Positions 12,440 to 62,412 of a stretch of 64,000 bases of DNA are shown in pieces. The notes under the pieces were generated by a model. That model was not told the DNA's origin. It searched no databases and saw nothing but the letters and a program-made list of their open reading frames with translations. Both the position numbers and the translations under genes were made by a program. How positions within the stretch are numbered: the first letter of the stretch is position 1; the number at the start of each line of letters is the position of its first letter. The stretch is from Promethearchaeota archaeon Loki_b32. Lineage in GTDB: Archaea > Asgardarchaeota > Lokiarchaeia > Sigyniarchaeales > SOKP01. Where the stretch lies: the NCBI GenBank assembly GCA_005223125.1, contig NJBH01000013.1, positions 1 to 64,000 of the forward strand, in the 5' to 3' direction.

Positions 12440-13126
12440 TTATTTATTATCTTTAACATCATCTGCATCAGGGGGCCTTTTTGGACAAGAACTTAAATGG
12501 CGACCAAGTCTAACAAACTCTTTTTGACAATAAGGACAAGCTTGCTTCTCTGCTGTACTTTTTTCTCTTGTTCCCGGTTTTCCACTAACTTTTTTCTTTT
12601 TTTTCTTTCCCCTAGTTGGCATGATATCTTCTATACTTGCATCATCGGGAGCAAACTCACAATTTTGAATGTGTGAAGAAAGATTATCGAATATATCTCC
12701 ACAGAACGGGCATTCTGTTATATCAGCTATTTCTGAATCTTCAAGGTCCGCCTTTCCTGCTTTTCTCTTTTCAAATTTCATTGGTGCTACTTCATCTTCT
12801 TCTTCAAACTCATCAATTGATAAATCAATTTTATCTTCCGATGTTATTTCTGCGATTTCAAATTCCTCCAGTTTTATCGCTCTTTCTTTAATTTTTTTTT
12901 CAGCAATCTTTTTGCTTTCTTCAAATATTTCTGAAAATCGCCGAGTGTTTTTGGCTGGATCATATTTGGTACACACTTGGCATACATAAGCTCGAGTGCC
13001 TAAAGTCAATTCTCTAGCAAGACAATAACATAAAGCTTGAAGACTGTTACTAATATTGCCTTTCGGTTCAAGGTGTTTACATACAATTTTTCTTGAATAT
13101 TTAATTTTTTGTTTACGTCTGGGAAT
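12440..13126 (-). CDS. Cys-rich protein with two C2HC zinc fingers; probable ATT start (228 aa)
   Basis: Frame extends 39 codons beyond the TTG at 13009 (IPRRKQKIKYSRKIVCKHLEP...LCYCLARE). GGTGAT SD at 13137-13132, 5 nt before ATT; in-frame TGA at 13135-13133. Fingers CPFC..HIQNC and CPYC..HLSSC. Confidence 0.8.
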   Translation of the reverse strand: MPRRKQKIKYSRKIVCKHLEPKGNISNSLQALCYCLARELTLGTRAYVCQVCTKYDPAKNTRRFSEIFEESKKIAEKKIKERAIKLEEFEIAEITSEDKIDLSIDEFEEEDEVAPMKFEKRKAGKADLEDSEIADITECPFCGDIFDNLSSHIQNCEFAPDDASIEDIMPTRGKKKKKKVSGKPGTREKSTAEKQACPYCQKEFVRLGRHLSSCPKRPPDADDVKDNK

Positions 13127-13229
13127 AAACGATCACCAAAAGAAGTATGTAAGATAGTTATTCTTAAAATTTAATTTTTTTGAATTTAAGTAAAAGAAAT
13201 TTAATAAATTTACAAATTTAAAAATAGAT

Positions 13230-14804
13230 TTAAAAATTAAAATTTAAATTTTTGATATCTTTTGAAATTTTATTCTTTAATTCAATATTTTCCAGATTTG
13301 GTAATAATTCTTCAACAATATCTTTTAATTCTACAATTTTTTGAATAAGCAAATCAGGTTTATTCCAAAAATCTGTTCTTAATGGATGCATCTTTAAGAG
13401 AGCTTTATTAAAATTCTCAATAGCTGCTCTATAAAATAAGCAAGTATTTTCTAGTTTATTAAGCCTTGATTGATAAATTGAACCAATTTTATTAAAACAC
13501 ATACCTGCCCCTGCAAAATCACCTTCTTTTTCAAAATTTATAGCCGCATCTTGAATTTTATTCAGAGCATCTTCTAAAACTTCATTATCTCCTTTTTTTA
13601 ATAGCAAATAACCTCTAATATAGTAAGCTACTCCTAAATAAAAACGATGATTTTGTTTTTTAGCAAGTTTAAATAAATCGTCAGAAAATTCTCCCGCAAA
13701 AATTAAGTGTTCATTTGAAATGCATTTTTGAGTAACAATTCTTAAAAGCTCTAAAACTCTTTCAAAATCTTTATTTTCTCTATATTTTTCAATTCCTTCC
13801 CTAAATTTTTCAATTCCTGTAAAGGAATCTTTATTTTCGAATGCTTGATTTCCTTCATAAATTAATTGTTCTGTTGTTTCTTTCAATTTGATTTCTTTCT
13901 GCTTTTTCTTTCCATCGATCTCGCCATAAAAGAAATCATCAACTCCAAATGTAATATCTTCAGTCATAGGAATTTCGGTTAAAAAATTTTTAGTTTTTAT
14001 ATCGTTTGGTTCAGAACGGGCCTGAACTTTTTTTTCTTGTGAAAATTCTTCTCTGTACGCAGATTGTAAAGGTTTTCCTTCAGTTACCAGGGCAGATAGC
14101 TCAGATAAAACATTTGCAAAGAAGTATTTATTTAATCCGTCCACAACATAATCTATTTTATGATAATTATTGTCAAATCCAGGATCATTTACATTCATAC
14201 TTACGTCAGTTATTCTATAGATTTCAAAACCAGTATCATATTTTGTCATAGGGTATTCAGAGCCGTCTTCAACTTTTATCATTTCTTCTTTCTTCTTTCC
14301 TAAAAGGGTGTGATCAAATACTAAACCACAAAAATCGTTATTGTTTTGCTGAAATCCTAATTGGTTAATTAAATCTATATATGAAAAAAATAAGTTTAAT
14401 CCAGGATGGCTATGAAACCATCCAACTATATAATACCCTTTTCCCTCTTTATCAAGTTTCTCTTGAATTTCTTCGATAAATCCATAATGTCTTTCGTCCA
14501 ACTGAACATCAGTCGCATGTCCAAATGTTAAAGCTTCTGCACGCTCTACATAAACTAATTCTTCATCAGATTTTCCAATTAATAAACCATATATTTCTTT
14601 CCATTCCGCTGGAGGTATTGATTTATTTGCAAATCTGCTTGTGTATAAGATTATAGTTTTATAGGCATCTGCTCTAATAACTACTGGCTTACTGATTTTT
14701 TCTATTTGCTTTTCCTCTTTAGTATCTTCATTTTCTAAATTAGATTCCATATTTTCGTTTCCTGAATTTTCGTTATTATTGGGGTTTTTAAATTTCTCTG
14801 ACAT
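13230..14804 (-). CDS. MPN/JAMM metallo-isopeptidase domain fused to TPR/SNAP-like helical repeats
   Basis: Intact JAMM motif E(IYGLL)...GWFHSHPGLNLFFSYID; C-terminal helical repeats (AAINFEKEGDFAGAGMCFNKIGSIY). Confidence 0.85.
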   Translation of the reverse strand: MSEKFKNPNNNENSGNENMESNLENEDTKEEKQIEKISKPVVIRADAYKTIILYTSRFANKSIPPAEWKEIYGLLIGKSDEELVYVERAEALTFGHATDVQLDERHYGFIEEIQEKLDKEGKGYYIVGWFHSHPGLNLFFSYIDLINQLGFQQNNNDFCGLVFDHTLLGKKKEEMIKVEDGSEYPMTKYDTGFEIYRITDVSMNVNDPGFDNNYHKIDYVVDGLNKYFFANVLSELSALVTEGKPLQSAYREEFSQEKKVQARSEPNDIKTKNFLTEIPMTEDITFGVDDFFYGEIDGKKKQKEIKLKETTEQLIYEGNQAFENKDSFTGIEKFREGIEKYRENKDFERVLELLRIVTQKCISNEHLIFAGEFSDDLFKLAKKQNHRFYLGVAYYIRGYLLLKKGDNEVLEDALNKIQDAAINFEKEGDFAGAGMCFNKIGSIYQSRLNKLENTCLFYRAAIENFNKALLKMHPLRTDFWNKPDLLIQKIVELKDIVEELLPNLENIELKNKISKDIKNLNFNF

Positions 14805-14992
14805 ATCAACCTTTCCTAATTTAATAATTAATTCTAAAAAAATAATAAATGTATACTTAATTAAAATTATGTATGATTAGTTCATAATAAGTGGTTTTAT
14901 CAAATGTTTAAAGACTTCTAATGAAAGTATAGAAAAAGCTCAAGTTGATTTAAGTAAAAGTCAATCTAATGCTTATTAAAAAAAATATAGGG

Positions 14993-15103
14993 CTAGCTAG
15001 CTTGAATGCTCAAAGTAGAAAAATAAAAAAAAAAAGTAAATTTAATTTAATTTTTTGATATTGATTTTCATGATTTTAGGTTTTTTTTCTTAAAGTGCCT
15101 GAA
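14993..15103. repeat. ~110-bp direct repeat, copy 1 (Loki-CTERM gene tail plus downstream DNA)
   Basis: Blocks CTAGCTAGCTTGAATGCTCAAAGTAGAAA (14993-15021) and ATTTTTTGATATTGATTTTCATGATTTTAG (15050-15079) are identical to 17715-17743 and 17770-17799. Confidence 0.95.
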
Positions 15104-17593
15104 AACCAGAATGCTGGATACCAGACCAAGTATTGCCATGAGTAAGAATCCATTATATCCTGGAATAGCTGCAGATCCATCGCCCTCTTCAATTAAAACA
15201 TCGACACTAATACAATTGGATAATGTATACCCATACTCGTTATATGCTGCAACAATGTAATAATAGGTTCCATCCGACAGTCCGGTAATAGAGTATGGTG
15301 ATATTGCATTTTGAAAGGAAAGTGAAGTTTGGCTGTAATCAAGTTCAGTGATATAACTATTGGATGTAAAAACCGAATAATTATCTGCTCCTTGAGAACT
15401 GGCCCATACTAATTTGAAATCTCCATCAAGATCAGGTGTATCAGCACTGGATAACAACGTAAATTGTTCTGGAACTCCTTCTACAACAGTAACACTAATA
15501 CAATTGGATAATGTATACCCATGCTCGTTATATGCTGCAACAATGTAATAGTAGGTTCCAACCGACAGTCCGGTAATAGAGAATGGTGATATTGCATTCT
15601 GATCAGCAATTAGAGTAAGACTTCCGTTAATAACAGTAATAAAACTATTAGATATAAAAACCGAATAATTATCTGCTCCTTGAGAACTGGTCCATATTAA
15701 ATTGAAATTTCCATCAAGATCAGGAGTATCTGCATCAGAATCCAAATAAAAATCATCTGGCGCCCATTTTAATGAAAATAAATCAAGTATTTCCATTACA
15801 TTATAAGAAAAGTTTTCTAATTCTGCCTTATGAACTTGTTGTACTAAATAAACCCAACCTGATATATGACAGTGGCTTGCTGGATTTAATGGGCGGTTTA
15901 CGTCATAAATTAATGATTGGATCTTCATATAATAGTCTAATTGTGTTAAATAATCAGTTTCAGCTGCGGCCGCATTCATCAATTCAGTTAATCCACCAGA
16001 ACTAGTATCGTTAATCCGTGAAAAGCATGAGCCAGAAGCTAAATTGAATAATGGATCAATCATATTGAATGGATTTAAATAATCTGCGCACCATCCAATA
16101 TATGCAATATCCATTTGCCAAGGACTGTTTTCGCCTACGTCTAAATAAAGACCCCACTCTCTCACGGTTTCTGTCATTTCAATTCCAATCATATCAAAGT
16201 TGTCGTCCAGTAATTGATTTAACACTAGGTTGGTTACACTTCCAAAGTGTCTGTTTATTTCAAGATTTCTTCCAAGGATGTTTTGACCCATCCAATCAAG
16301 ATCAGTATTGACATCAAATCCAGAACAATCAATACCACCACGTGCAACGATATCAGCAGCGTTATCTTTCAAGATCTGTCTTGCTTTTACGATATTGGCT
16401 TCCCATGTGAAACTAGAGTCACTGGCTTGTACTACAGATGCATTATGTCCAGGCATAGCTCGAGGAACTGCGGTAGTTCCTTCAACAGCATAACCAGCTT
16501 GAATTTCTTCATAGATATATGTATAGTTAATTGCTAATGCAAGAGCTCGTCTTAAGTATGCAGGGTTTTTCTGGTATTGATGATCACCTGGAACGATCAT
16601 ATTACCCCCAGTATCTCTTGGGCCAGAGTAAATTTCTAAATAGAAGTAGCAGAGATTTTCACCAACATCTTCTACATGAAAGTCTGGATCGGCTCTGAAC
16701 GTATCGATATATATTTTTGTGACGTCATCAATATAATCAAATTGTCCGGCTAAAGCTGCATTCATTCTACCTGTATCATCTTCTATGATCGTCCAAATCA
16801 TTTCTTTAATTTTGGCTTCTCCTCGCCAGTAATTTTCAAATACTTTAAACCTTACTTCCACATCTCTCCAAAAATGTTGATAATCAAAAGGACCAGTACC
16901 AACTAAATCATCAGTTTCTAAATCTAAATAGGTATATCTAGGGGTAGACTCAGGTGATAAAATATCGGTAGCACCAAAACAGAGTAAATCTAATAACGCA
17001 CCAAAAGGCTTACTTAAAATTATTGTAAATTTGTAAGGATCTATATTATCATCTGCAATAAATGAATCAAAGATAGGCGTGCCATCAGCATGAAAGAATA
17101 ATGAACTTGGAAATGCTGGCCATGATGTTGAATTGTAAGGAAGAGTACCTGTGGCATCAATGAAATATTGTACTCTTTCAAAATTCCATTTAACATCTTC
17201 GGCAGTCATCATTGTTCCATCATGGAATTGTACACCTTGTCTTAACGTAAAAGTGATTTGAGTATCACTATCCCAAACCCATGATTCAGCAAGCACAGGC
17301 TTTATTGCATAATTAGGATGAGTTGACCAATTGTACTCAACTAAACCCTCTACAACTTGGTATTGTACGTTATGTGATGGAACATCCCAAGTATCAACAG
17401 GATCAAGTGCTGCAGGATTACTCGCAAAACCCACTTTAAATGGAACAGTGGAAGAAGGAATTGGATATTGTTCAATCGATTTTATCCCATTTCCGTTATA
17501 TTCATTCTGATAAACTAGAATTATTGAATAAGCTGTTATTGAGGTAGAAAGTATAAGAAAAAGAAGAAAAAAACCATAAGTCTCTTTTTTCAT
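15068..17593 (-). CDS. Family-5 (DppA/OppA-like) ABC substrate-binding protein with two Ig/FN3-like repeats and Loki-CTERM-like tail
   Basis: LDP, EGL, LAESW, FTLRQGVQFHDG..TAEDV.W..ER, GTGPF motifs; N-terminal hydrophobic helix; tail IPGYNGFLLMAILGLVSSILVFRHFKKK. ATG at 17593 preferred over TTG at 17635. Confidence 0.9.
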   Translation of the reverse strand: MKKETYGFFLLFLILSTSITAYSIILVYQNEYNGNGIKSIEQYPIPSSTVPFKVGFASNPAALDPVDTWDVPSHNVQYQVVEGLVEYNWSTHPNYAIKPVLAESWVWDSDTQITFTLRQGVQFHDGTMMTAEDVKWNFERVQYFIDATGTLPYNSTSWPAFPSSLFFHADGTPIFDSFIADDNIDPYKFTIILSKPFGALLDLLCFGATDILSPESTPRYTYLDLETDDLVGTGPFDYQHFWRDVEVRFKVFENYWRGEAKIKEMIWTIIEDDTGRMNAALAGQFDYIDDVTKIYIDTFRADPDFHVEDVGENLCYFYLEIYSGPRDTGGNMIVPGDHQYQKNPAYLRRALALAINYTYIYEEIQAGYAVEGTTAVPRAMPGHNASVVQASDSSFTWEANIVKARQILKDNAADIVARGGIDCSGFDVNTDLDWMGQNILGRNLEINRHFGSVTNLVLNQLLDDNFDMIGIEMTETVREWGLYLDVGENSPWQMDIAYIGWCADYLNPFNMIDPLFNLASGSCFSRINDTSSGGLTELMNAAAAETDYLTQLDYYMKIQSLIYDVNRPLNPASHCHISGWVYLVQQVHKAELENFSYNVMEILDLFSLKWAPDDFYLDSDADTPDLDGNFNLIWTSSQGADNYSVFISNSFITVINGSLTLIADQNAISPFSITGLSVGTYYYIVAAYNEHGYTLSNCISVTVVEGVPEQFTLLSSADTPDLDGDFKLVWASSQGADNYSVFTSNSYITELDYSQTSLSFQNAISPYSITGLSDGTYYYIVAAYNEYGYTLSNCISVDVLIEEGDGSAAIPGYNGFLLMAILGLVSSILVFRHFKKKNLKS
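15204..15734 (-). repeat. Intragenic tandem duplication of a 96-aa FN3-like domain (288-bp period)
   Basis: 15204-15446 closely matches 15492-15734 (ADTPDLDG.F.L.W.SSQGADNYSVF...GTYYYIVAAYNE.GYTLSNCISV). Confidence 0.9.
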
Positions 17594-17714
17594 TTTATTT
17601 TGCCTTTTCTGTTTGTATTTATATAAACTTATCAAAAAAATGATAAGTTGATTAATAGATTATCGTGCTATTATAAAAATTTTTCCTTGAACATTTTTCG
17701 AACAATAAAGTACA

Positions 17715-17822
17715 CTAGCTAGCTTGAATGCTCAAAGTAGAAAGATTTGAAAAATAATACTTTAATTGTATTTTTTGATATTGATTTTCATGATTTTAGA
17801 TTTTTTTCTTCATGTGCCTGAA
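17715..17822. repeat. ~110-bp direct repeat, copy 2; overlaps and supplies the comE C-terminus
   Basis: Identical blocks with copy 1. comE ends FRHMKKKI versus FRHFKKKNLKS in the binding protein, through a 1-nt shorter T run. Confidence 0.95.
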
Positions 17823-18871: not shown

Positions 18872-18997
18872 AACATTAATTTAATTAGATGTGTTTAATT
18901 TGAAATTTAACGTTACTTAAATGATCACTAATTTACAACTATCTTTAAAACTTAAGAATTAATTTATAATATTGTACTGGAATAATCATTTTAGAAG

Positions 18998-19384
18998 GTG
19001 AATAAAATAATAATTGAACTAATTGCTTCAATATACATAATTTTAATCGGAGTCGCAATGTTGAGCATGTGGCTCTTTTTATTAATAAAGAGAGAAGTAC
19101 CAGAACTTAAAACTAAGCCAACTCAAATATTTTTTCATTTAATTGCTGAATTTTTGACCTCTACTATGCTTATACTTGGAGGAATTGGATACATAACAAA
19201 TCAATCTTGGGGGGTGGCAATATTCTTCATTGCTATTGGAATGACAATCTATTCTACCATAAACGCAGCAGGTTTTTATGGGCAATTAAAAGATTGGCCA
19301 ATATTTATTACATTATTAGTATTTACACTTATTTCTCTTCTGATAATGTCTTTAATAATACTTGTCGAATTCCAAGTCCTATGA
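18998..19384 (+). CDS. Four-TM hypothetical membrane protein
   Basis: Four hydrophobic helices with FHLIAE motif. The GTG lies inside a GGTGA SD-like motif, so the true start may be ATA at 19007 or 19010. Confidence 0.8.
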   Translation: MNKIIIELIASIYIILIGVAMLSMWLFLLIKREVPELKTKPTQIFFHLIAEFLTSTMLILGGIGYITNQSWGVAIFFIAIGMTIYSTINAAGFYGQLKDWPIFITLLVFTLISLLIMSLIILVEFQVL

Positions 19385-19391
19385 TAAAAAC

Positions 19392-23920: not shown

Positions 23921-23938
23921 AAATTTCTTCTATTTAAT

Positions 23939-37317: not shown

Positions 37318-37611
37318 ATGGACTTCTTTCTTAGCAACTTAAAAGAAACACTTGAAGCGATAAATAAGTTAATAGATAATAATGTAACTATTGTAAACGC
37401 TAAAAGAATTAGAAGATGTAATCATATTAAATCTTCAAATCGCTCAAAGATCAATTTCATTTGGAGATCTCTAAGATACCTTGAAGATGAAGGAATATTA
37501 ACATTAAACGGGATAACTAACCCTAGGACTTATAAGATAATAACAAATGAAAAAATTGATGTTGATAAAGTACTTTCTCAAATTGAGAAAAACAAGAAAA
37601 ATAAGTCTTAG
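37318..37611 (+). CDS. Small basic winged-helix-like protein
   Basis: FIWRSLRYLEDEGIL...PRTYKI. Confidence 0.65.
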   Translation: MDFFLSNLKETLEAINKLIDNNVTIVNAKRIRRCNHIKSSNRSKINFIWRSLRYLEDEGILTLNGITNPRTYKIITNEKIDVDKVLSQIEKNKKNKS

Positions 37612-40340
37612 ATTAAATCTAACTCTATTAATAACTCATTTAATTTGTTTTTTGTTTCCTTATCTTTCGGATTGTTAATCAACCGTTTTTGATAAAAAAT
37701 TATATTGGGATATTTCAGCTCTAATTTATTAAATAGCTTTATCCATCTGTTAAAGTTATTGAGTAATTCGTTTACTTCAGGGTCTTCTTCTAAAGACATA
37801 ATTTCTTCTTTCTCTTCTTTTGAAAGGCTAGTTTTATATTTTTTTACACTAATGCCTTGATCATTTAACAACTTCTTATTAGTTCTTCTGATAAATCCTT
37901 CCAAACCGCTTCTCCAATGAACATACTTCTCATTAATTTTATCTATAGTCTCTTGAATAATTTTTATCTCTTGCGGATAAATTGTTTCTTGTTGCTTAGA
38001 TAATATCTTCTTTATTTTTTGAAATTCTGTTTCAAACTTCTGAGTGTAATTGTTAACCATTTTCTCAAATTCAAATAACACAGTATTATAATCTTTAGCA
38101 AATATTACATCATCACTAGAAAAAGTTAATGTTTCTTCTTCAAATGAACCTTTTAATCTCCTTTTTTGTATTAAATCCTCAAAAATTTCTCTTAATAAAC
38201 CAATCTCAGTTTGATTTAATTCCTTGCCATAAAATAAATCATAGAAAGAAAATAGAAAACTACTTTCCAACATCTGGTTCCTAATTCCGCTTTCTGTATA
38301 AAAGAGAACTTCTCCTGCATTTTGATGAAAAATACCCTTTACTTTACCGTCAGCTATTAAATCATGAATTAGATCTTCTATTAAACTTGAAGTGATATCA
38401 TATGTTCCTAAAGAGATATAATCATTAGATTTAGATTTGTCAATTAGCATAAATTTAATATCATTCTTTGCATCTTCTATTTTTTGCGGGCTAAAAATTA
38501 GTAAATCTGCTTTTTTAAAATAAATAAGGCCTAATTCATCAATAAATTTCAAAAAAATGTCTAGTTCCATCCCAGTTTTTTCAAGATATTCACTAATCTT
38601 TAGTTGATCTTTTTGTTTTATTTCTTCTGCAATTAACTGTAAATTTTCATCGATTTTTGATAAAATATGATTTCTATCAATATTAAGTTGCTTGGAGATC
38701 TCATTAATTTGTTTTAATCTTTCGGTTTCATCTGTAATTGAACTTATTTTATCAATTTTATCTTTTAAATACTTTGAGTAATAGAATATATTTTTTTGAT
38801 TATTCCAAATTCCGCTCCTATAGTCTACAAATTGGTCAAATACATCTAAGAGTAGAAGTTGTCCTATATTTAATTTATCTGAAATTCTAGATATGTCAAA
38901 ATAACCGACAATTTTAGAGTTTTGGACTTTATTTGTAATTTTTTGTACTCCTAAGTTTGTTAACCACTGTGTACCTTTACGAAACTTAGATAAGTATTCT
39001 CTTGGCATATTTTTCACTAATCTTATAAAATCTTCATCCAATAGAATCTGACGATAAGATTTAAGATCTATAACACTTCCTTTTGCAGCTTCAGAATTAA
39101 GTTGATCTTGAATTTTTTTTAATGAGATGTATGTTTCTTGATCTTTTCGCTTTAAAAAAGTTATTTTCATAGATTTAGAGATACCCTTCATAATTCTATC
39201 AATAAAATTTTGAGGAAGGAAGTTATAACTGGTTAACTCGATAGAACCATTTACTTGTAAATCCTCTATTAATTTTGATTTTATATAGACATAGGGGTAA
39301 AAAAATCCAATATCCGAATAATACCCCTCAATTATTTTTAGATTATTTAGCGTTTTTATAAATAGCTTTAATTCTGAATCATCATCAATAACTTGAGAAA
39401 ATGTATTATAAATTTTCTTATCTGAGATTTTCTTATCTTGTTTAAAAAATGTTTTTAGTTTATCTTTTTCTAATTCATAGATATATATTACATTTTCTTT
39501 GGTTTTTATATAGAAATAAATCTTCTTTTCCTTAAGATTTGATTTAGCAAAGTTCTTTAAGTGCTCTTTGAGATCCACATCTAACTTCTTCCTTATTAGT
39601 GAAAAATTGTGTTTTTTCATCAAAAAAAGGTTTTCTATTAGGGTTATAACATCTTTACTTTCCAAGTTCTCCAATCCAATTTCATTAAGCAATGGAAAAA
39701 ACTTCTTTAAAAGTTCTATTAATCTAATGAAAATTTTAGAGGATTTTTTATCTTCAAATGAGGAAATTAATGATTTTGAAATATCTCTAAAATAAAATAA
39801 ATGATCAAAATCTAAATCAACACAGGAATCAAGGAAATTTAGCAGGGAAATGATATTATCTGTTTTATTTTCTGTTAGAAGACTTTCCAAAATGATTTCT
39901 AAATCAGGATTTAATAAATTTGGATTAATTTTAATTAATTCTTGTAAAAAGTAATGTACATTATTCCTAACATCTTCAGATTTATCTTTAAGAAACTTTA
40001 CAAACTCATGAGAATAGCTTTCAACGTATTTTGAATTTGCAAGCATCGCAAATCCAATGATAATTATTGAATTAATTTTTAACTTTACATCTTCAGATTG
40101 AAGAAAATTCTCAATTTTTTGTATTAATCCTTCAGAAATAAGTTCGATTCTATTTTCTGCCAAAATTGATAAAATATAGGTAATTGGAACATTATATTTT
40201 TTTTCATCCAATAAAAATTTAAATTCATTAATGAGTTTTGAAATTTTATCAATTTTATTTTTACTTAAAAGCTTGTTTAGTTTATCTACTTTTTCAAGAA
40301 TTAAGCTATCTTTAAAATCCTCAAGATTAAGCATATTCAA
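37608..40340 (-). CDS. Large HEAT/ARM plus tandem winged-helix (PCI/UFL1-like) protein
   Basis: N-terminal HEAT motifs (LKDKSEDVRNN); repeated wHTH-like units (DISRISDKLNI, LIHDLIADGKVKG, DLIQKRRLKGSFEEETLTF); C-terminal coiled coil. Confidence 0.65.
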   Translation of the reverse strand: MNMLNLEDFKDSLILEKVDKLNKLLSKNKIDKISKLINEFKFLLDEKKYNVPITYILSILAENRIELISEGLIQKIENFLQSEDVKLKINSIIIIGFAMLANSKYVESYSHEFVKFLKDKSEDVRNNVHYFLQELIKINPNLLNPDLEIILESLLTENKTDNIISLLNFLDSCVDLDFDHLFYFRDISKSLISSFEDKKSSKIFIRLIELLKKFFPLLNEIGLENLESKDVITLIENLFLMKKHNFSLIRKKLDVDLKEHLKNFAKSNLKEKKIYFYIKTKENVIYIYELEKDKLKTFFKQDKKISDKKIYNTFSQVIDDDSELKLFIKTLNNLKIIEGYYSDIGFFYPYVYIKSKLIEDLQVNGSIELTSYNFLPQNFIDRIMKGISKSMKITFLKRKDQETYISLKKIQDQLNSEAAKGSVIDLKSYRQILLDEDFIRLVKNMPREYLSKFRKGTQWLTNLGVQKITNKVQNSKIVGYFDISRISDKLNIGQLLLLDVFDQFVDYRSGIWNNQKNIFYYSKYLKDKIDKISSITDETERLKQINEISKQLNIDRNHILSKIDENLQLIAEEIKQKDQLKISEYLEKTGMELDIFLKFIDELGLIYFKKADLLIFSPQKIEDAKNDIKFMLIDKSKSNDYISLGTYDITSSLIEDLIHDLIADGKVKGIFHQNAGEVLFYTESGIRNQMLESSFLFSFYDLFYGKELNQTEIGLLREIFEDLIQKRRLKGSFEEETLTFSSDDVIFAKDYNTVLFEFEKMVNNYTQKFETEFQKIKKILSKQQETIYPQEIKIIQETIDKINEKYVHWRSGLEGFIRRTNKKLLNDQGISVKKYKTSLSKEEKEEIMSLEEDPEVNELLNNFNRWIKLFNKLELKYPNIIFYQKRLINNPKDKETKNKLNELLIELDLI

Positions 40341-44764: not shown

Positions 44765-46288
44765 ATGGCACTGCCTTTACCTGGAACACCAATTATAATT
44801 GATATTGGCTCAGCATATGTGAAGATTGGATTTGCCGGAGAACCAGGACCTAGATTTGTGTTTCCTTGTATAACAGGAACAGAAAAATATAAATCTGTGA
44901 TGGTTGACATAAGCGCTAGAAGTATTTACGTTGGAAACGACGTATCTCGCATGCGTGGAGTTCTTAAAATTAAACATCCTCTAAATCGTGGAGAAATCAT
45001 TGATTGGGACAGTTATTATGAGATCTTAAACTATATATTTTATTCATTACTTAGAATTGAAAATCTTTCACTTTATCCAGTATTCTATTGCGAACCTCCT
45101 TTTATGCATAGAGATACTAAAGAATTTATTGCCAGAGTTTTTTTTGAAACTCATCACGTCCGAAGTCTAGTAATGATGTCAACACCTTTACTTTCCCTAT
45201 TTAGTGTTGGATTGACATCAGGATTGGTAATTGAAAGCGGAGATGGCTTGTCATGGATTGTACCAATAATTAACGGTCAAATAGTTCACCATGCAGTCCA
45301 GAAAATTCCAATTGCAGGAATAGATGTTAATCAGAATTTAAAAGGTCTTTTAATGAGAGAAGGAGCAAGTATTTCTTCTAGTGCTGCGGATGAGATTATC
45401 CAAGATATTAAAGAAAAGAATTGTTATTTTGTATTGGATCCAAATAAACCACCAAGTACAGGAGAAATATTTAGTTTTCCAATGCCAGATGGATCAACCA
45501 TTAGTGTTCCAACTTACATTCTCTATCAAGCTCCAGAAGTATTATTTAATCCTGGCATGTTAGGTTATGGAAACGTTATGAATCTACCTCAAGCAGTACT
45601 TACTTGTTTGAGAGCCATTGATAATCACTATTGGCATGATCTTTTATCACATATTGTATTTTCGGGAGGGAATCTTTCATATAGTGGCTTTAAAGAACGT
45701 TTCGAATTTGAATTAGACCAGATTCTTCCTCAATTAGGTTCAATCCCTAAACCAGTCGCCCCTCTTTCTGCAGTTAAAAGTGAATTAATCAAGCTTCAAT
45801 CTGTTGAAATATCAAAGAAAAAAGAGGATACTTGCCCTCATTGTGGGACTAATGTTAATCTTGGTGATGGGAAAAAATTATGTCCCTCATGTGGGGGTGT
45901 ACTTGTTTTACCGGAGATAAAAATTGGAGCACTAGGCCAAAGCAGTCAAAGTAAACAAATTAAGGTAAAATGTCCACATTGTAAAAAGAAGGTCGCCGAT
46001 ACAGATTCACTTTTTTGTCCGTATTGTGGAAAACCCATAGAATCTTTAGAAGCAGCTGCTCTACCCAAAGCAGTAATAGAAAAATCACCCGCTCAAGAAT
46101 TTTCTGAATTCATGGAATCTGCTAGTAATGTTCTCAAATTTTTTATTCCTGACAATCTTCAATTTACTATTTTTAATGGAGCTGCCATTTTAGGGAGTTT
46201 GCCTAGCTTTCAGCAATTATTTATAACATCTGAACAATTTCAAACAAACAAGGATCTATTATACAGAGACATTAGTGAGATTCTTTAA
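44765..46288 (+). CDS. Actin-family protein with inserted double zinc ribbon
   Basis: IDIGSAYVKIGFAGE..PRFVFP, ESGDG, IKEKNCY, MPDG, APEVLFNP, FSGG, GAAILGSL.SFQQ; four CxxC pairs between 45833 and 46027. Confidence 0.93.
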   Translation: MALPLPGTPIIIDIGSAYVKIGFAGEPGPRFVFPCITGTEKYKSVMVDISARSIYVGNDVSRMRGVLKIKHPLNRGEIIDWDSYYEILNYIFYSLLRIENLSLYPVFYCEPPFMHRDTKEFIARVFFETHHVRSLVMMSTPLLSLFSVGLTSGLVIESGDGLSWIVPIINGQIVHHAVQKIPIAGIDVNQNLKGLLMREGASISSSAADEIIQDIKEKNCYFVLDPNKPPSTGEIFSFPMPDGSTISVPTYILYQAPEVLFNPGMLGYGNVMNLPQAVLTCLRAIDNHYWHDLLSHIVFSGGNLSYSGFKERFEFELDQILPQLGSIPKPVAPLSAVKSELIKLQSVEISKKKEDTCPHCGTNVNLGDGKKLCPSCGGVLVLPEIKIGALGQSSQSKQIKVKCPHCKKKVADTDSLFCPYCGKPIESLEAAALPKAVIEKSPAQEFSEFMESASNVLKFFIPDNLQFTIFNGAAILGSLPSFQQLFITSEQFQTNKDLLYRDISEIL

Positions 46289-54459: not shown

Positions 54460-54630
54460 TTTATATTTTTCTTTAACAAAGGGTAATAGACTAATTTTGC
54501 TTTAAAATACCTTTCTATTTCTATAAAAACTTTGTTCAGAATGACTTTTAATGCAATTTGATTAAAATAATTCTCTCTTACTCTATCCTTCAATCTAAAT
54601 ATTCAAATATTAGAAGAGATAATTATATGT

Positions 54631-54666
54631 AAGTTTCAACTTATATATAAGTTCAAACTTATATAT
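54631..54666. promoter_or_regulatory. Palindromic/direct-repeat site upstream of the ECF S-component gene
   Basis: AAGTTTCAACTTATATATAAGTTCAAACTTATATAT; perfect core AACTTATATATAAGTT. Confidence 0.5.
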
Positions 54667-54676
54667 TTTAAGTGGA

Positions 54677-55315
54677 ATGAAAATGATGAAAGATAATAAA
54701 ATAGTGAAAGAAAAAAGGTCTTTTGGAGGAAAAAGTCTATTTGGTTATTTCATACCTGATAATGCATTAGTAATTTCGGTAATAGGTATTTTTATAGCTT
54801 TAAATTTTATAGTAACCTATTGGATTCAAATTCCTGTTCCTGCTACTGGAGGATACATTAATATTGGAGATCTTACAGTAATGTTTACGGCTCTTTTATT
54901 TGGACCCATTATAGGAGGTATTGCAGGTGGCGTGGGGCCCATGCTAGCAGATATATTTTCTCCTTGGGTAATTTATGCTCCTGCTACTCTAGTTATTAAA
55001 GGTATCGAGGGATTTTTAATTGGATTTATTGCTAATCCAAAAGATTGTGAAGGGAGAGTTTCTTATCGTGATATAATTGCTGTTTTATTTGGTGGAATTT
55101 TAATACCTTTTGGGTATTTCATCTATGAAGCTTTCATAATCAAGCTTGGAACTGCCGTAGCCTTGGTTGAGATGCCAGGTAACTTTTTTCAATTTGGGTT
55201 TGCTGCGATAGGTTCAATTTTACTTATAATTCTTTCAAGAGAAAACATAATTGAAGCTTTACCACAGGTTTTTAATAAAGTATTTATTCCAATTGAAACC
55301 GAAAATGTTGAATAA
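54677..55315 (+). CDS. ECF transporter S component
   Basis: IPVPATGGYINIGD, LFGP, LADI, APATLVIKGIEG. Confidence 0.88.
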   Translation: MKMMKDNKIVKEKRSFGGKSLFGYFIPDNALVISVIGIFIALNFIVTYWIQIPVPATGGYINIGDLTVMFTALLFGPIIGGIAGGVGPMLADIFSPWVIYAPATLVIKGIEGFLIGFIANPKDCEGRVSYRDIIAVLFGGILIPFGYFIYEAFIIKLGTAVALVEMPGNFFQFGFAAIGSILLIILSRENIIEALPQVFNKVFIPIETENVE

Positions 55316-55322
55316 ACTTATC

Positions 55323-56759
55323 TCAAATTAATGTAATTAATACATCTAGAGCATCTAAAACCTTTTTACCACTTTCAGTTATAAAATACAACACATTTTT
55401 TCCTTCTTTTTTTCGAGAAATCAATCCTTTCGATTCTAATTCTTTTAAGTGCTGATATATTGCTGCTAAACTTATAGTTCCCATAATTTCTTGAATTTTA
55501 GTGCCACTAATTCCCTTAATACTTGATATCGAAATTAGAGATAAAATTTTCAATTTTGTGATTATAATCGAACCTTTACCAGTTGTTTTAGTTTGAGATG
55601 AAATTGCTTCTAATACATATGGTGCTTTCAATCCACTTCCCGTTATTAAACATACAATCTTTTCATTAATATCAAAAGAATTTTTTTCATTTAACGATTG
55701 AATTGCTGCTATTGTTAAAGCAGAGGCTGGTTCAGCAAAGATTCCTTCGTGTCTTATAAGCTTATCAATTGAATTTAAAATTTTATCTTCTGGAATTGCT
55801 ATAACAGTACCTTCACTCTCTCTAATACATTTTATTGCCAAATCTTTATATAAAGGATTTTTTACTAATATCCCCAAGGCGAGTGACTTTTGGATACCTT
55901 GGTTCTTTCTTTCAATTTTATCTTTTCTTAGGAATTCATCTACAATCGGAGATAATGCTTGAGATTGTACCCCCACTAATTTTGGAACATTTTTTATGAC
56001 CTTAGCATTTTGAAGTTCATAAAAACCTTTCCATAAACTTACTAATAATTCTCCACTACCCATAGGAATTAAAATCCAACTTGGATCTTCAACTTGATTT
56101 ATAATTTCATAAGCAATGGTTTTTTGGGCTTCAAGAGTAAGTGGATTTAAGTCAGGAGTCCCTTGATAAAAATCATCAATATTTTTTCGTTTTAAAACAT
56201 CTTTAATAGCATCATCGACAGTTTCTCCAATTACTTCTAATTTAGAATTGTAAGCAATCATTTGAGCTTTTTTCCCAACATCAATTATTCTTGGAATAAT
56301 ATTCAAACAATTCATTCCTTCAACAGAACTATAAGCCGCTAAAGAAGCACCTTGATTACCATTTGAAGCACAAATAATTTTTTGAAAATCCCAACTTCTC
56401 GCATGGGACGTTAATAATGCAGCGGCACGATCCTTGAAAGAATTTGTAGGATTTTGAGTTTCATCTTTAAAAAAAAGGTATTTTAATCCTAATTTTTCTC
56501 CAAATTTATTTGAAATTCTACACGGGCTTCCACCTTCTCCTAATGAAACAATAAAATCATCCTTTATTTTAGGCAGCGCGAATTTGTAATCCCAAAACTT
56601 TTTACTATCTTTAATTTTAGAGAATTCCCGGCTAAGATTTTCTATATTAAGTTCGAACCATAATAACCCATTACATTCAGGACATTTATGTTGAATAGAG
56701 GTAAATTCATACTTTTTCTTACAATTAGTACAAGACAGAATCAGTGGTTTTTTAATAAT
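55323..56759 (-). CDS. thrC: Threonine synthase with N-terminal zinc finger and C-terminal ArsR-like wHTH; non-canonical start (ATT 56759 or 56756)
   Basis: Frame extends 148 codons upstream of ATG 56315 through CTNC..CPEC, SLGEGGSP, KDETQNPTNSFKDR and ASNGNQGASLAAY. GAGGT at 56770-56766. Confidence 0.88.
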   Translation of the reverse strand: MIKKPLILSCTNCKKKYEFTSIQHKCPECNGLLWFELNIENLSREFSKIKDSKKFWDYKFALPKIKDDFIVSLGEGGSPCRISNKFGEKLGLKYLFFKDETQNPTNSFKDRAAALLTSHARSWDFQKIICASNGNQGASLAAYSSVEGMNCLNIIPRIIDVGKKAQMIAYNSKLEVIGETVDDAIKDVLKRKNIDDFYQGTPDLNPLTLEAQKTIAYEIINQVEDPSWILIPMGSGELLVSLWKGFYELQNAKVIKNVPKLVGVQSQALSPIVDEFLRKDKIERKNQGIQKSLALGILVKNPLYKDLAIKCIRESEGTVIAIPEDKILNSIDKLIRHEGIFAEPASALTIAAIQSLNEKNSFDINEKIVCLITGSGLKAPYVLEAISSQTKTTGKGSIIITKLKILSLISISSIKGISGTKIQEIMGTISLAAIYQHLKELESKGLISRKKEGKNVLYFITESGKKVLDALDVLITLI

Positions 56760-56883
56760 GAAATAACCTCTAAGATAGATATTAATTTTAATTTATTCAT
56801 TAATTGGTTTTTCTTATTATTAAGTCCTTTTAACAAACTCTTTTCTTGTGAGAGAGAACTTTATTTTATTTAATTTTAATAAT

Positions 56884-56901
56884 TTTACGATGCATCGTAA
56901 A
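56884..56901. promoter_or_regulatory. Perfect 18-bp palindrome, candidate DtxR-family operator
   Basis: TTTACGATGCATCGTAAA, about 60 nt upstream of the ZIP-DtxR pair. Confidence 0.75.
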
Positions 56902-56960
56902 TTTTATATTCATGATAACACTAAGTAAAACAATTTAAAATTTTAATAAAGTGATTAAAA

Positions 56961-57716
56961 ATTCTTCTGTGGATAATATTTTTTAGTATTTTAGGAAGTG
57001 TAGGAGCAATTACTGCAGCTGGAAGTTTTATGTTTTTAAATGAGAAATCTCAAAAGAGCCTTATACCCCTTTTAATTGCATTTGCTACAGGCGTTCTCCT
57101 CACGGCAGCATTTTTAGGATTAATTCCAGAAGCAGTTGAAAAAGCTGGCGAACCTCATATTATTATGCCTTATATATTAGGAGGTATCCTTTTCTTCTTT
57201 ATAATGGAAAAGGTTGTTATTTGGAGAAATTGCCGCGATAAAACCTGTGAGGTTCATTCAAATGCATCTGGACCAATTATCCTTCTGGGGGATTCTTTAC
57301 ATAATTTAACAGATGGTATAGTTATAGCTGCGGCCTTTTTATCTGGATTAAATCTTGGAATTGTAGCAGGATTTACTATTATATTTCATGAACTAGCACA
57401 TGAAACTGGAGATTTTGGAGTCCTTTTACATTCAGGATATTCAAAAAAGAAAGCTTTTATTTATAATATGGTCTCTAGTTCAACCACAATACCGGCTTCG
57501 ATTATTTCTTATTTCCTTTTAGATTCGATGGAATTTGCCGTACCATTTTTACTGGCAATTTCCGCTTCAAGCTTTATATACATTGCTCTCTCAGATTTAA
57601 CCCCAGATCTCCATCAACACACAGAAATTAAATATATTCTGAAGCAGATAGCTTTTATTATAATTGGAATTGTCTTGATGGCGCTAATATTATCACTAGG
57701 AGGCCATCAACATTAA
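56961..57716 (+). CDS. ZIP family metal transporter; probable ATT start (251 aa)
   Basis: FATGVLL, GDSLHNLTDG, FHELAHETGDF, FIYIALSDL. The first TM helix (ILLWIIFFSILGSVGAITAAG) lies upstream of ATG 57030; in-frame TGA at 56952-56954; AGTGAT 5 nt before ATT. Confidence 0.88.
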   Translation: MLLWIIFFSILGSVGAITAAGSFMFLNEKSQKSLIPLLIAFATGVLLTAAFLGLIPEAVEKAGEPHIIMPYILGGILFFFIMEKVVIWRNCRDKTCEVHSNASGPIILLGDSLHNLTDGIVIAAAFLSGLNLGIVAGFTIIFHELAHETGDFGVLLHSGYSKKKAFIYNMVSSSTTIPASIISYFLLDSMEFAVPFLLAISASSFIYIALSDLTPDLHQHTEIKYILKQIAFIIIGIVLMALILSLGGHQH

Positions 57717-57767
57717 ATACTATTTTTTTATAACAACCTATAGATTTAAAATTAATATAGATTAAAA

Positions 57768-58181
57768 ATGTTAGATTTAGATTATAAAACTATAAAAGTC
57801 TTATATCGTCAAAATGATTTGAAAGTTGGGACAATAGCAAAAAAACTTGAGTTGCCCCATTCTACAGTTGGAAGTTGCATAAAAAGATTAGAAAATAAAG
57901 GATATGTGATTTATCATCGTTATAAACCAGTTTTATTATCCATTAAAGGAAGGGAACTCGCAATTGAGTTAACTCGTCATGCACGACTTCTAGAAATGTT
58001 ATTAATCAATGAGTTCAATCTTAATCCGGTTGATGCTCATTCAGAATGTGAAAAATTCAATTTGCTCTTTTCATGTGAATTAATAAATAAGATATGTCAA
58101 AAATATGACCATCCAAAAAGTTGCCCTTGTGGTGAGAAAATTTTAAGTTCATCAGGTTGTTTATGTGAAAAAGAAATTTAA
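57768..58181 (+). CDS. DtxR/MntR-family metal-dependent repressor
   Basis: IAKKL...STV...IKRLENKGYV.Y.RYK.V.L, RHARLLE, HPKSCPCG. Confidence 0.85.
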   Translation: MLDLDYKTIKVLYRQNDLKVGTIAKKLELPHSTVGSCIKRLENKGYVIYHRYKPVLLSIKGRELAIELTRHARLLEMLLINEFNLNPVDAHSECEKFNLLFSCELINKICQKYDHPKSCPCGEKILSSSGCLCEKEI

Positions 58182-58185
58182 GATC

Positions 58186-58662
58186 TTATTTAATAAGCTT
58201 ATTCGAAGCATAAGCAGCAAGTATTTCTCCATAAAAATAATGATGACTGCTCATATTTGATTTACTAGAATGAATAATTTTACATTCATAGCTTAATATA
58301 GAATCCTTTATAGTAGGAACTGACATTTTTTTTCCTGGAATGGATCCTAAACCTGCTTTTTTAAATTTATCTGTATTCCTTCCTGAGTAAGAACCTGCAA
58401 TATCTATTGCCGAATATATTTTATCTGATGGTATATTAACAGAAAATTCATTCACATCCTCTGTAAGTAATTTATACGTATATCGAGTGTAGGCTACAGT
58501 AGCCCTGATGACGGGTTTACCATCAAATTCCTCAATGCTTTTCCAGTCTAAAGCCATAACATTGGGTTTTCCATTTTTATCCATCGATACCAATAATCCT
58601 GTATTTCTCTTGAAGTGTTCGATATAATCGTATGGTCCAATTTCTTTTCTATTTTCAGCCAT
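58186..58662 (-). CDS. Flavin reductase-like protein (DIM6/NTAB family)
   Basis: GKPNVMA, EFSVNIP, GSYSGRNTDKF, ECK, H.F.GEI. Confidence 0.85.
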   Translation of the reverse strand: MAENRKEIGPYDYIEHFKRNTGLLVSMDKNGKPNVMALDWKSIEEFDGKPVIRATVAYTRYTYKLLTEDVNEFSVNIPSDKIYSAIDIAGSYSGRNTDKFKKAGLGSIPGKKMSVPTIKDSILSYECKIIHSSKSNMSSHHYFYGEILAAYASNKLIK

Positions 58663-58716
58663 ATTTATCAAATCTTCATTTCAATTATTAATTTGAAATT
58701 CTTGTAACTTAAAAAA

Positions 58717-59552: not shown

Positions 59553-59561
59553 AATTTTTGA

Positions 59562-59801
59562 TTATGGTTCAAATTTTTTGTCATGTATGACTTTATCTAT
59601 TGCCTTTAATGTAGCATCTTCCCAATTATCATCAGGATCGATACTTTCACAGCAATCAGGGCACCAATCTTCAGGATAACCACTATCGAAATCATCACCT
59701 TCCATATCACCATTTAAAGTGCTCCCACAATAAAGGCAGGTACCATTCTCGTAATTTTCGACGATCTCTAAAATTAACTCAATTTTTTTTTTTAAATTCA
59801 T
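59562..59801 (-). CDS. Small acidic zinc-binding hypothetical protein
   Basis: CLYC...CPDC. Confidence 0.65.
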   Translation of the reverse strand: MNLKKKIELILEIVENYENGTCLYCGSTLNGDMEGDDFDSGYPEDWCPDCCESIDPDDNWEDATLKAIDKVIHDKKFEP

Positions 59802-59870
59802 TTTTAGATATGAAGTTTAATTTAAAATATAATAAAATAAGACAAAAAATAATATAAGTATTGCATAAAA

Positions 59871-60203
59871 TTATACAATACACAAACTTACTTCTTTTAA
59901 CCTTTTTTCGGCATCACTTACAATATTATAAATAATATCTTGAACACTATTAATAGAGCTAATTAATCCGATACTTTGACCTAAAAGAACAACTCCATCA
60001 TCAATATTACCTTCATAAGTCATTTCATAATGCTTTTGATCCTCTATTACCATCTTAGGAGTAATTTGAGCCTCTAATGCTATTTTTTCTTCTTTACTTT
60101 TTACAACGCCATGATCTAATGAATACTTATTTTTCCAAAGTCGTATTGGGCCCAAGACTCCAGTAACCCATAATGTGTCGTTTGCCTCTGCAGAAGATTT
60201 CAA
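59871..60203 (-). pseudogene. C-terminal remnant of a nitronate monooxygenase/FabK-like flavoprotein
   Basis: G.IDDG...GQSIGLI..I.SV.DII..IV.DAE.RL C-terminal signature; upstream is AT-rich with a TA run instead of the barrel-coding region. Confidence 0.75.
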
Positions 60204-60346
60204 ATTTTCATTTCTAAATATATATATATAAGAATTCCTATTTTGTTTTTATAAATTAAAAAATTACATATCATACACTTCTATTTTAAAAGCCAGAACA
60301 ATTACTATTGAAGTTTTTTAATAATTTTTTCTAGGCGATTAAATAA

Positions 60347-61522
60347 TTGGACACCACTGTTAATATAAAAATATCTGTTCTTGGAGATGGAGAAGTTGGT
60401 AAAACTTCTATTATAAATGCATTCTTAGGAGAAGAAATACCAGATAGATATATGCCTACTATTGGTACTATAACACATAGGAAAGATTATAGAATAAAAG
60501 ATTTAGAAAAAGTTATAAGCATAACGCTATGGGATGCAGGAGGACAAAAGTCATTTAATCCTTTTAATCCAACGGTATACAGCGATGTAGATGGAGCTCT
60601 TTTAGTCTTCGATTTAACAAAGCCAAAGGAAACATTAATAAATTTAAAAAAAGAATTTTTAGAGAATACAAATCGTTATTCTGAAGAAGTTTTGATACTT
60701 TATATTGGAAATAAATTAGATCAACTTTCGAACGATAAACAAGTTAAAGCTTCATTAAAAGATAATATGACGAAAAGAGATAATTTATTTCTAATTTCCG
60801 CCAAAACCGGTGAAGGTGTTAAAGAATGCTTTGAATTATTGATTTATACATTTCTAAGAAAAGCAGAAATAATAGACCCTGACAAAGTTCCTACTAACAC
60901 TGCTGAAAGATTTCTGAATTTAATTGGTATGGATGAAAAGAAATTAAAAGCTCATTTAGTAAATTTAACTAATTTAGAAACTGCTTTTCAAAAAATTAAA
61001 CCAAAAACTAAAGTTAAAAAGGAAATTGCAGTTGAAAAAGAAAATAAGGATTTAAAATACTTTGAATTTCTTAAAGAGCAATTGCAAAAGAATGAAATTC
61101 AAAAAAATGATGTGTTTGATCAATTCTTAATAAACATATCTGAACTTGACAGAACAATTAAACATTTAAAAAAATCGCAATCTAAATCAGTTAAAGAATT
61201 AGTCGATAACTTAAAAGAATTTTTAATTACAGCAAAAATAGATTTTGAAAAGAATGTTGATTTAATAAGAAAGTTAAATTTAGAAGAATTTGAATTAGTA
61301 AAAATAATATTCAAAACAAAAGAAGAAGCATCAAATCCAGAAAGGAAAGAAATAAAAATTAAAAATAAAGAGGATAAGAAGAACATCAAACCTCAAGAAA
61401 AATTATACACTTTATATGAGAAAGAAAACCCAGGTAAAAAAGCTCTGTGGAGAAGTAAAGAAACTAAAGATTATAAAACCTGGAAAGAAAAATATGGACA
61501 AATTATGAATATCTCAAAATAA
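60347..61522 (+). CDS. Rab-like small GTPase with long C-terminal coiled-coil extension
   Basis: GDGEVGKTS, PTIG, WDAGGQ, GNKLD, SAKTG, then ~220 aa of charged helical sequence. Confidence 0.9.
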   Translation: MDTTVNIKISVLGDGEVGKTSIINAFLGEEIPDRYMPTIGTITHRKDYRIKDLEKVISITLWDAGGQKSFNPFNPTVYSDVDGALLVFDLTKPKETLINLKKEFLENTNRYSEEVLILYIGNKLDQLSNDKQVKASLKDNMTKRDNLFLISAKTGEGVKECFELLIYTFLRKAEIIDPDKVPTNTAERFLNLIGMDEKKLKAHLVNLTNLETAFQKIKPKTKVKKEIAVEKENKDLKYFEFLKEQLQKNEIQKNDVFDQFLINISELDRTIKHLKKSQSKSVKELVDNLKEFLITAKIDFEKNVDLIRKLNLEEFELVKIIFKTKEEASNPERKEIKIKNKEDKKNIKPQEKLYTLYEKENPGKKALWRSKETKDYKTWKEKYGQIMNISK

Positions 61523-61539
61523 ATTAAAGGTGATAAAAA

Positions 61540-62412
61540 ATATCTGAAGAAGTATCTGGAAAAGATTTTCAGAAATTAAAGGAGCAAGTAAATAAACTTA
61601 GTCAAAAATTAGATGATCAGTTAAAAAAATCCGAACAAAAAACGAATGAGCAGATAAAATCACTTGAACTAGCTCGAAATGAACAAGTTAATAATCTCGA
61701 AGAAACTTTAACTGATAGATTTAATAAATTAGAACAAAAAACAAAAGATCAGTTCACACAATTAGATAAGAAAATAATAGGGCAAGGAAATACAATTAAT
61801 AAGAAAATTGAAGATTTAGCAAACATGTTTGAAGGAGAATTAAAGGAGAAATTTACAAATTTAAATAATAAATTAGAGGAGAACTTCAAAACACTTAACC
61901 AAGAAATAGAAAATAATTTTAAAGTAATAACTCAAAAATTAAATGAAAATGTTAATGCTCTAGAAGAAAAAATAGGATCTCTATTAGGTAGAATAAAATC
62001 TGTAGAAGAAGATTTTTCAACTAAGTTGAAGATCCTCAATGAAGATTTCGAGATCAAAGAAGAAGTACTTAGAGATATATTTAAAAAATTCGAAACTGAT
62101 AATACAGAATTCAAGAATAATCTTAAACCTGTGTTGGAGACCCTTAAAAGTCAACAAGATTTAGTTAAAATAACTCTTGACGTGCAAAAAAAACAAATAC
62201 ACGAAAGTGCCAAAGAATGGATCAATGATGAAATAAAATTAGCTTGTAAAAACAAAGAAAGAGAAATTCTTATGAATTTATGGATTGATGAACTGAAAGA
62301 AATAATTGACAATTTAGATAAATTAAAAGAAATGCACCCAAAAGAATTAAAGCTTCATATTAATGAAATTTCAAGCGTTATCGGATTATTTAAACAGAAG
62401 TTTATAAAATAA
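61540..62412 (+). CDS. Coiled-coil/apolipoprotein-like repeat protein; probable ATA start (290 aa)
   Basis: Frame is open 95 codons upstream of ATG 61825 (ISEEVSGKDFQKLKEQVNKLSQKLDD...). GGTGAT at 61529-61534, 5 nt before ATA; in-frame TAA at 61534-61536. Confidence 0.8.
   Translation: MSEEVSGKDFQKLKEQVNKLSQKLDDQLKKSEQKTNEQIKSLELARNEQVNNLEETLTDRFNKLEQKTKDQFTQLDKKIIGQGNTINKKIEDLANMFEGELKEKFTNLNNKLEENFKTLNQEIENNFKVITQKLNENVNALEEKIGSLLGRIKSVEEDFSTKLKILNEDFEIKEEVLRDIFKKFETDNTEFKNNLKPVLETLKSQQDLVKITLDVQKKQIHESAKEWINDEIKLACKNKEREILMNLWIDELKEIIDNLDKLKEMHPKELKLHINEISSVIGLFKQKFIK

Follow-up and report, generated by a model that had tools for sequence, protein, structure and literature searches.

Two starts at non-canonical codons are confirmed for Escherichia coli, the AUU starts of infC (encoding IF3) and pcnB (10.1101/063800; PMC4705826), and initiation at AUA, AUC, AUU or CUG in this bacterium reaches 1-2% of that at AUG (10.1101/063800). 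Reviews of archaeal initiation list AUG, GUG and UUG starts only (PMC7531240), the initiation factor aIF1 of Sulfolobus solfataricus discriminates against AUU (PMC4705826), and a published model holds that aIF1 competes with full tRNA accommodation while the strength and spacing of the Shine-Dalgarno (SD) sequence set the stability of the complex (PMC6237735). In eukaryotes, eIF1 is autoregulated by its own poor start context, and near-cognate CUG, ACG and AUU starts occur (PMC4705826). Here we analyze a 64,000-nucleotide stretch of DNA (the window), part of contig C2 in the genome (4.13 Mb, 30% G+C; coded G000) of Loki_b32, a Lokiarchaeia (Asgard) archaeon within a large family coded f1, in which four genes appear to begin at ATT or ATA. 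Comparison with relatives indicates that this family almost certainly initiates a small percentage of its ordinary genes, that of aIF1 among them, at codons one mismatch from AUG, most likely with a lowered start-codon stringency that is offset by SD strength and possibly set by aIF1 feedback; we give this reading a probability of roughly 0.8. Throughout, ATH denotes ATT, ATC or ATA, canonical codons are ATG, GTG and TTG, spacing is measured from the A in GGTGA, and the codes denote relatives' genomes (G), homologous loci (L), families (f) and run assemblies (X).

The original prediction described GGTGAT-5-ATT at 13126 (minus strand), GAGGT-6-ATT at 56759 (minus), AGTGAT-5-ATT at 56961 (plus) and GGTGAT-5-ATA at 61540 (plus), and all four contexts read as claimed. 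An in-frame stop lies 2, 11, 2 and 1 codons upstream of these sites, respectively, the first downstream ATG, GTG or TTG follows 39, 148, 23 and 95 codons on, and no canonical codon stands between the upstream stop and the Ile codon at any of them. The coding stretch that a canonical start would skip is conserved and closed upstream by the stop: starting at the first canonical codon, the threonine-synthase-like enzyme (thrC) would lose its zinc ribbon and the segment with the pyridoxal phosphate (PLP)-binding lysine, and the ZIP transporter its first hydrophobic stretch. In each gene a codon with a single mismatch to AUG occupies the column of the orthologs' ATG, preceded at start-codon spacing by an SD complementary to the organism's own 16S rRNA, whose 3' end reads GATCACCTCCT and corresponds to an SD consensus of AGGAGGTGATC.

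Two alternatives bear directly on these sites. Initiation might use a GTG or TTG that is part of the SD-like motif, or take place on leaderless transcripts, leaving the Ile codons internal; many orthologs do have the GTG of GGTGA or an earlier TTG in frame, gene callers use these codons, and the window holds such a GTG at 18998. The four main sites, with their stop 1-11 codons upstream, offer no such codon, orthologs with ATG begin in the Ile column and not at the GTG, and the frame of the GTG varies freely among orthologs, making this explanation extremely unlikely. Alternatively, the Ile codons could be assembly errors or mark decaying pseudogenes, and thrC is indeed missing from two near-identical strains and so is dispensable there. 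Sequence accuracy was checked on assembled contigs, independent assemblies included: assemblies 98-100% identical to the window carry identical codons (L356, L361-L364, L367-L368), and contigs of run X1, possibly from the same study as the window, cover 56759, 56961 and 61540 with their few differences all falling elsewhere. The homologs of the four genes have intact, conserved frames across dozens of species, and core genes such as that of aIF1 are affected, so that error or decay is refuted by the orthologs and seems to us next to impossible.

Aligning 17-30 orthologs per gene, as the prediction had suggested, revealed ATG, ATT, ATC, ATA, ACG and TTG interchanging in a single column. At 13126 the 30 orthologs have ATG 13 times, ACG 7, ATC 5, ATT 3, and TTG and ATA once each; the 30 ZIP orthologs have ATT (17), ATG (10) and one each of ACG, ATC and TTG; and at 61540 the 23 orthologs divide into ATA (10), ATG (9), ATT (2), ATC (1) and TTG (1). 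For thrC the near-cognate start stands and its position shifts by one codon, since column 56759 is never ATG whereas column 56756 holds ATT 13 times, ATG 3 times and ATC once. The start is therefore most likely the second ATT, which is also at the usual SD spacing; the PRK05638 model matches from residue 7. The four gene trees need a minimum of 8, 7, 5 and 2 codon changes, and the start state follows the gene rather than the genome, with the clade of G003, G007, G011 and G017 having ATG at 13126 and ATA at 61540. The ribosomal protein gene uS12 starts with ATG in G000 and has ATA as its sole option in G006. Together with a frame- and spacing-specific peak of ATH codons and start-like second residues across the genome, described below, these swaps support the proposal of relaxed start-codon selection in this lineage.

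Genome-wide, an SD of at least 5 nucleotides (nt) lies near the 5' end of 621 of 3333 open reading frames (ORFs), so the scarcity of SD sequences reported for Lokiarchaeia stands. In these 621 ORFs the codon at spacing 4-9 is ATG in 244, TTG in 75 and GTG in 23, and 145 ORFs have no canonical codon nearby. In ORFs of this last kind, ATH accounts for 69 of the 133 codons that lie in frame at spacing 5-7, compared to 12% downstream (p=4e-25). Counting the codons that follow GGTG/GTGA anchors, a check also proposed with the original prediction, gave ATH, at spacing 5-7 in SD-led genes lacking a canonical codon, in 95 of 217 in-frame positions versus 33 of 502 out of frame (p=2e-30). The in-frame share rises from 11% at spacing 4 to 46% and 55% at spacings 5 and 6 and falls to 29% and 10% at 7 and 8, with 9-18% at all spacings other than 5-7 and 5-10% for out-of-frame triplets; unrelated control anchor motifs yielded no ATH excess. 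S, P, T, A or G follows the near-cognate codon in 48% of cases, close to the 46% seen with ATG starts and unlike the 27% for internal Ile (p=6e-5). ACG and CTG are modestly enriched (6 observed, 1.6 expected, p=0.014) and AAG and AGG show no excess in the genome-wide anchor count (3 observed, 7 expected), suggesting a start set that is broader than ATT and ATA and includes ATC, ACG and CTG, ranked ATT > ATA > ATC > ACG, CTG.

All anchors together gave 146 matches (ATT 79, ATA 44, ATC 14, ACG 5, CTG 4) against 44 expected by chance, and we put the real near-cognate starts at about 116 of 3545 ORFs, or 3.3%, as a lower bound. An SD-independent homology test found 16 of 491 genes, a few of them doubtful, without a canonical codon until at least 20 residues into conserved sequence, likewise a lower bound. 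From these two bounds we estimate that some 3-5% of genes probably have near-cognate starts. At optimal spacing, their estimated share is about 23% of starts, with ATH roughly level with TTG (an estimated 78 vs 67). The four cases among about 56 genes in the window, from which the habit was first proposed, would imply 7% and overstate its rate, yet remain compatible with 3.3% (P=0.11). A pairwise search between G000 and G006 recovered only 2 ATG-to-ATH swaps out of 93, because members of the genus have many near-cognate starts in common. The SD-led ATT and ATC starts include isoleucyl-tRNA synthetase (IleRS)-like, uL15, uL16-like, L7Ae-like and TFB genes, at C49 near 49343 (plus strand), C11 near 81322, C36, C25 and C44:3987; these names, and those of the topoisomerase VI-B-like and small-GTPase genes mentioned below, come from motifs read by eye.

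Codon and SD strength appear to trade off. The SD has a GGTG core in 73% of near-cognate starts and 36% of ATG starts (p=6e-9), and in a strain whose 13126 gene is 98% identical to that of G000, ATG takes the start column and the SD duplex is -7.4 kcal/mol, compared to -12.3 kcal/mol here; both results point in the same direction. For three of the genes, SD energies in near-cognate versus ATG orthologs are -9.6 vs -5.5, -8.8 vs -4.0 and -6.4 vs -2.7 kcal/mol.

The initiation machinery looks conventional. The initiator tRNA gene (C48:102824-102965) has a CAT anticodon, an A1-U72 pair and the three anticodon-stem G-C pairs (GGG/CCC), and is interrupted by two introns, in the anticodon loop and the T arm; ARAGORN and an Rfam scan both missed it. 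No initiator with a non-CAU anticodon or lacking the three G-C pairs turned up in the incomplete tRNA inventory. The 16S P-site motifs are canonical by eye, uS9 ends in R, tRNA-Ile(GAT) is an ordinary elongator, and the genes for aIF1A and aIF2-beta both occur and start at ATG; motif searches of the genome did not retrieve aIF2-gamma, aIF5B or eS26. aIF1 keeps its zinc knuckle, and its loop 1 has K-W-R at the positions of R31, Y32 and K34 in P. abyssi (PMC6237735), conserved in kind. Fidelity substitutions, which the original prediction proposed to look for in aIF1 and aIF2, were not found in aIF1 or the initiator tRNA.

These data also bear on the possibility of a changed code or machinery, in which ATA encodes Met, a second initiator has another anticodon, or RNA editing restores AUG. 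In its favor, mitochondria use AUA and AUU in this way, and the tRNA inventory is incomplete at 21 genes; within that limit no second initiator copy was found in G000, and the single one has the ordinary features above. Internal ATA aligns to Ile in 72% of cases and to Met in 1.9%, like ATT and ATC, and among codons opposite internal ATG, ATA (41) is no commoner than TTA (43) or ATT (34), which rejects recoding of ATA as Met. Editing would need different changes for ATT, ATC, ATA, ACG and CTG, codons that have a single mismatch to AUG in common. We therefore regard a changed code or machinery as very unlikely.

Within Asgard archaea the excess of ATH recurs in G006, of the same genus, and G095, of another f1 genus (13 of 31 pooled), and is not seen in the samples of the neighboring family f2 (G032 and G038) or of f4, f15, f18 and f20 (6 of 110 pooled), a contrast with p=3e-6. 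Since G032 and G038 are equally A+T-rich and lack the excess, base composition alone is no explanation. Among the genomes sampled, three of them from f1 including G000, the habit thus appears limited to this family. A separate observation concerns the aIF2-gamma gene of locus L262 (G093, f20), in which a CTG ten codons upstream of the first ATG is preceded, at a distance of five bases, by a strong SD.

The sole aIF1 gene of G000 (C48:127600, minus strand; L175:1480-1791) itself begins at ATT; the reading frame is closed by a stop two codons ahead of it, and the first canonical codon comes only 52 codons beyond the first Cys. Across 78 related loci its start codon is ATT in 75, ATC in 3 and ATG in none, no canonical codon precedes the zinc knuckle, and the start lies at a spacing of 9 in nearly all loci and behind a split SD. 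This is an invariant weak start of the kind found in infC- and eIF1-type autoregulation, and it contrasts with the other genes tested, which swap to ATG. A five-codon GTG mini-ORF that ends over the aIF1 ATT was considered and set aside, as it is lost in the relatives with ATC. In other families, ATA is the sole option for aIF1 in f11, f17 and G030 and CTG in f6 and G108 (f9), with ATG, GTG or TTG in the rest.

We propose that the normal Met-tRNAi(CAU) would pair with a codon carrying one mismatch, and that SD pairing would hold this codon in the P site for the time needed to win out over proofreading by aIF1. A strong, well-spaced SD would then make up for a weak codon, and the two would drift against each other gene by gene; a looser aIF1 check in f1 would allow weak codons to be tolerated wherever the SD is good. 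The AUU start of aIF1, with its long spacing and split SD, could act as a negative-feedback set point like that of bacterial infC, keeping stringency low enough for the better-placed AUH starts, an analogy to which we assign about even odds. More tentatively, the lowered stringency of f1 may have arisen through aIF1 feedback on its own AUU, with AUH, ACG and CUG becoming routine starts tuned by SD strength.

The invariance of the aIF1 start could instead mean that AUH-started genes form a selected regulatory class, translated more strongly as a group whenever aIF1 or stringency declines, on the pattern of infC and pcnB. That a genus retains many of its near-cognate states, and that the list holds uL15, uL16-like, L7Ae-like, IleRS-like, topoisomerase VI-B-like, TFB and small-GTPase genes, would fit such a class. 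Gene functions in the list are mixed, however, and most genes repeatedly swap to ATG, in one case between strains as close as 98% identity, and have a weaker SD when they do, which fits constant output better than a switch. We consider a regulatory class unlikely, and favor single-mismatch starts as a general, SD-compensated tolerance of the family.

Several points weigh against this favored reading. Its evidence is sequence comparison throughout. No substitution in aIF1, initiator tRNA or uS9 separates f1 from families without the excess, and the aIF1 changes of f1 are also present in such families. As other Asgard families have weak aIF1 starts too, such a start alone may not cause a genome-wide habit. 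The outgroup samples cover 200-400 kb each, leaving room for low rates elsewhere. ZIP orthologs show no clear difference in SD energy between near-cognate and ATG starts (p=0.28), and phylogenetic pairing leaves about six well-supported independent pairs, none in the wrong direction and too few for significance.

Features of the window that bear on start selection are collected in Table 1.

Table 1. Coordinates in the window of genes discussed in the text and of their SD sequences.
Feature	Position	Strand	Remarks
228-amino-acid (aa) conserved protein containing a Zn finger	12440..13126	-	ATT start 13126; PF28519 in homologs
SD GGTGATC	13131..13137	-	7-nt match to 16S 3' end; in-frame stop formed by its TGA
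SD AGGTGA	18996..19001	+	contains in-frame GTG 18998 chosen by gene callers
DUF8058 membrane protein	19007..19384	+	probable ATA start 19007, spacing 5; weaker case
Threonine-synthase-like PLP enzyme (thrC)	55323..56756	-	N-terminal zinc ribbon, C-terminal winged helix-turn-helix; PALP and PRK05638 matches
SD GAGGT of thrC	56766..56770	-	GAGGT/AAGGT in near-cognate orthologs; absent in 3 ATG orthologs
SD GTGAT of ZIP gene	56951..56955	+	its TGA is the in-frame stop
ZIP zinc transporter	56961..57716	+	ATT start 56961; PF02535
Small-GTPase/Roc-type protein	60347..61522	+	TTG start, SD variant AGGCGAT; TIGR00231
SD AGGTGAT	61528..61534	+	in-frame TAA 61534-61536
290-aa coiled-coil protein	61540..62412	+	ATA start 61540

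For the fifth case put forward with the original prediction, 19007/19010, the evidence favors 19007, where 20 homologs have a canonical start in the column compared to 2 at 19010, and the in-frame GTG within the SD provides an alternative. Of the TTG starts also named there, 60347 is borne out (TTG in 23 of 28 orthologs, 4 of them shifted by one codon), with its variant SD (window 60330-60349) kept in most of the 28, and 53060 is common to two relatives; a TTG start at 40340 is unneeded, since it lacks an SD and is followed by an ATG at a distance of two codons.

The thrC gene lies in a variable slot (window 54519-56879). Loci L361 and L362 carry a different energy-coupling factor (ECF) gene there on the opposite strand, the swap replacing thrC and an ECF S-component gene in strains 91-98% identical in the flanks, and a contig of run X7 skips 56095-56774. 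In one strain whose sequence is identical around the start at 61540, the ZIP region (L363:107-1500, against window 56945-58341) is only 78% identical and has an ATG start; the ZIP allele of that strain was likely replaced by recombination. Directly upstream of the 13126 gene is a 524-aa JAB/MPN protein (13230-14804), an order kept in close relatives. Elsewhere, the window encodes an actin-family protein with fused C-terminal zinc ribbons (44765-46288; PF00022, E 3e-63), a 2244-aa ORF without a Pfam match (680-7414) and a 910-aa protein (37608-40340) with faint HEAT-like (Cnd1) and intein-splicing matches below the cut-off.

Near-cognate starts were expected to truncate automated annotations systematically, and this holds in part. 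Public records give 189 aa (from TTG 13009) for the 228-aa product of the 13126 gene, 228 aa instead of 251 aa for ZIP, and 195 aa in all 11 cluster members for the 290-aa protein at 61540. Many others are instead extended to a GTG or TTG inside the SD, as in the 128-aa call for the 19007 gene. Of 120 homologs of the 13126 protein, the record starts at the correct column in only 32; the majority run on to a GTG or TTG within or ahead of the SD, and the N-terminal motif is missing from 12. Deposited f1 proteins would thus be short of 20-150 residues at the N-terminus or carry spurious ones, with consequences for proteomics databases, structure prediction and inventories of genes such as those for translation factors, ribosomal proteins and small GTPases.

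With at least 100 near-cognate starts per genome, this family of free-living prokaryotes would be a natural experiment on start fidelity among close archaeal relatives of eukaryotes, and f1 would make it possible to test directly whether aIF1 is subject to self-regulation of the kind known for IF3 and eIF1. If it is, then start-codon autoregulation of a/eIF1 would, given the weak aIF1 starts across Asgard families (ATT, ATC, ATA and CTG), be an archaeal trait older than the eukaryotic eIF1 loop.

f1 resembles E. coli in that AUU initiation is led by the SD and that a proofreading-factor gene, infC there and aIF1 here, starts at AUU. Two genes are involved in E. coli, whereas G000 has about 116, which swap freely with ATG; moreover, no homology links aIF1 with IF3, and the feedback in f1 is proposed by analogy. 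The machinery matches that described for archaea (PMC7531240, PMC6237735), with an aIF1 bearing a zinc knuckle and basic loop, aIF1A, aIF2, a CAU initiator and a conserved anti-SD, yet S. solfataricus aIF1 rejects AUU while ATH in G000 is about as frequent as TTG at optimal spacing. With eukaryotes f1 shares an orthologous factor with a weak start in its own gene and the same tolerated codons, AAG and AGG being unenriched. Its starts, unlike the eukaryotic ones found mainly at upstream ORFs and extensions, are positioned by the SD, without scanning or Kozak context, on the main ORF of housekeeping genes. Mitochondria use AUA and AUU starts, and there too AUH starts are routine and the genome AT-rich; in f1, by contrast, internal ATA stays Ile, mRNAs are SD-led and the cell is free-living. 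Our literature search, with most subscription journals outside its coverage, turned up no publication that describes ATH starts for Asgard archaea. Relative to known near-cognate initiation, what appears new in f1 is its scale, its limitation to one family, the trade-off with the SD and the invariant start of aIF1.

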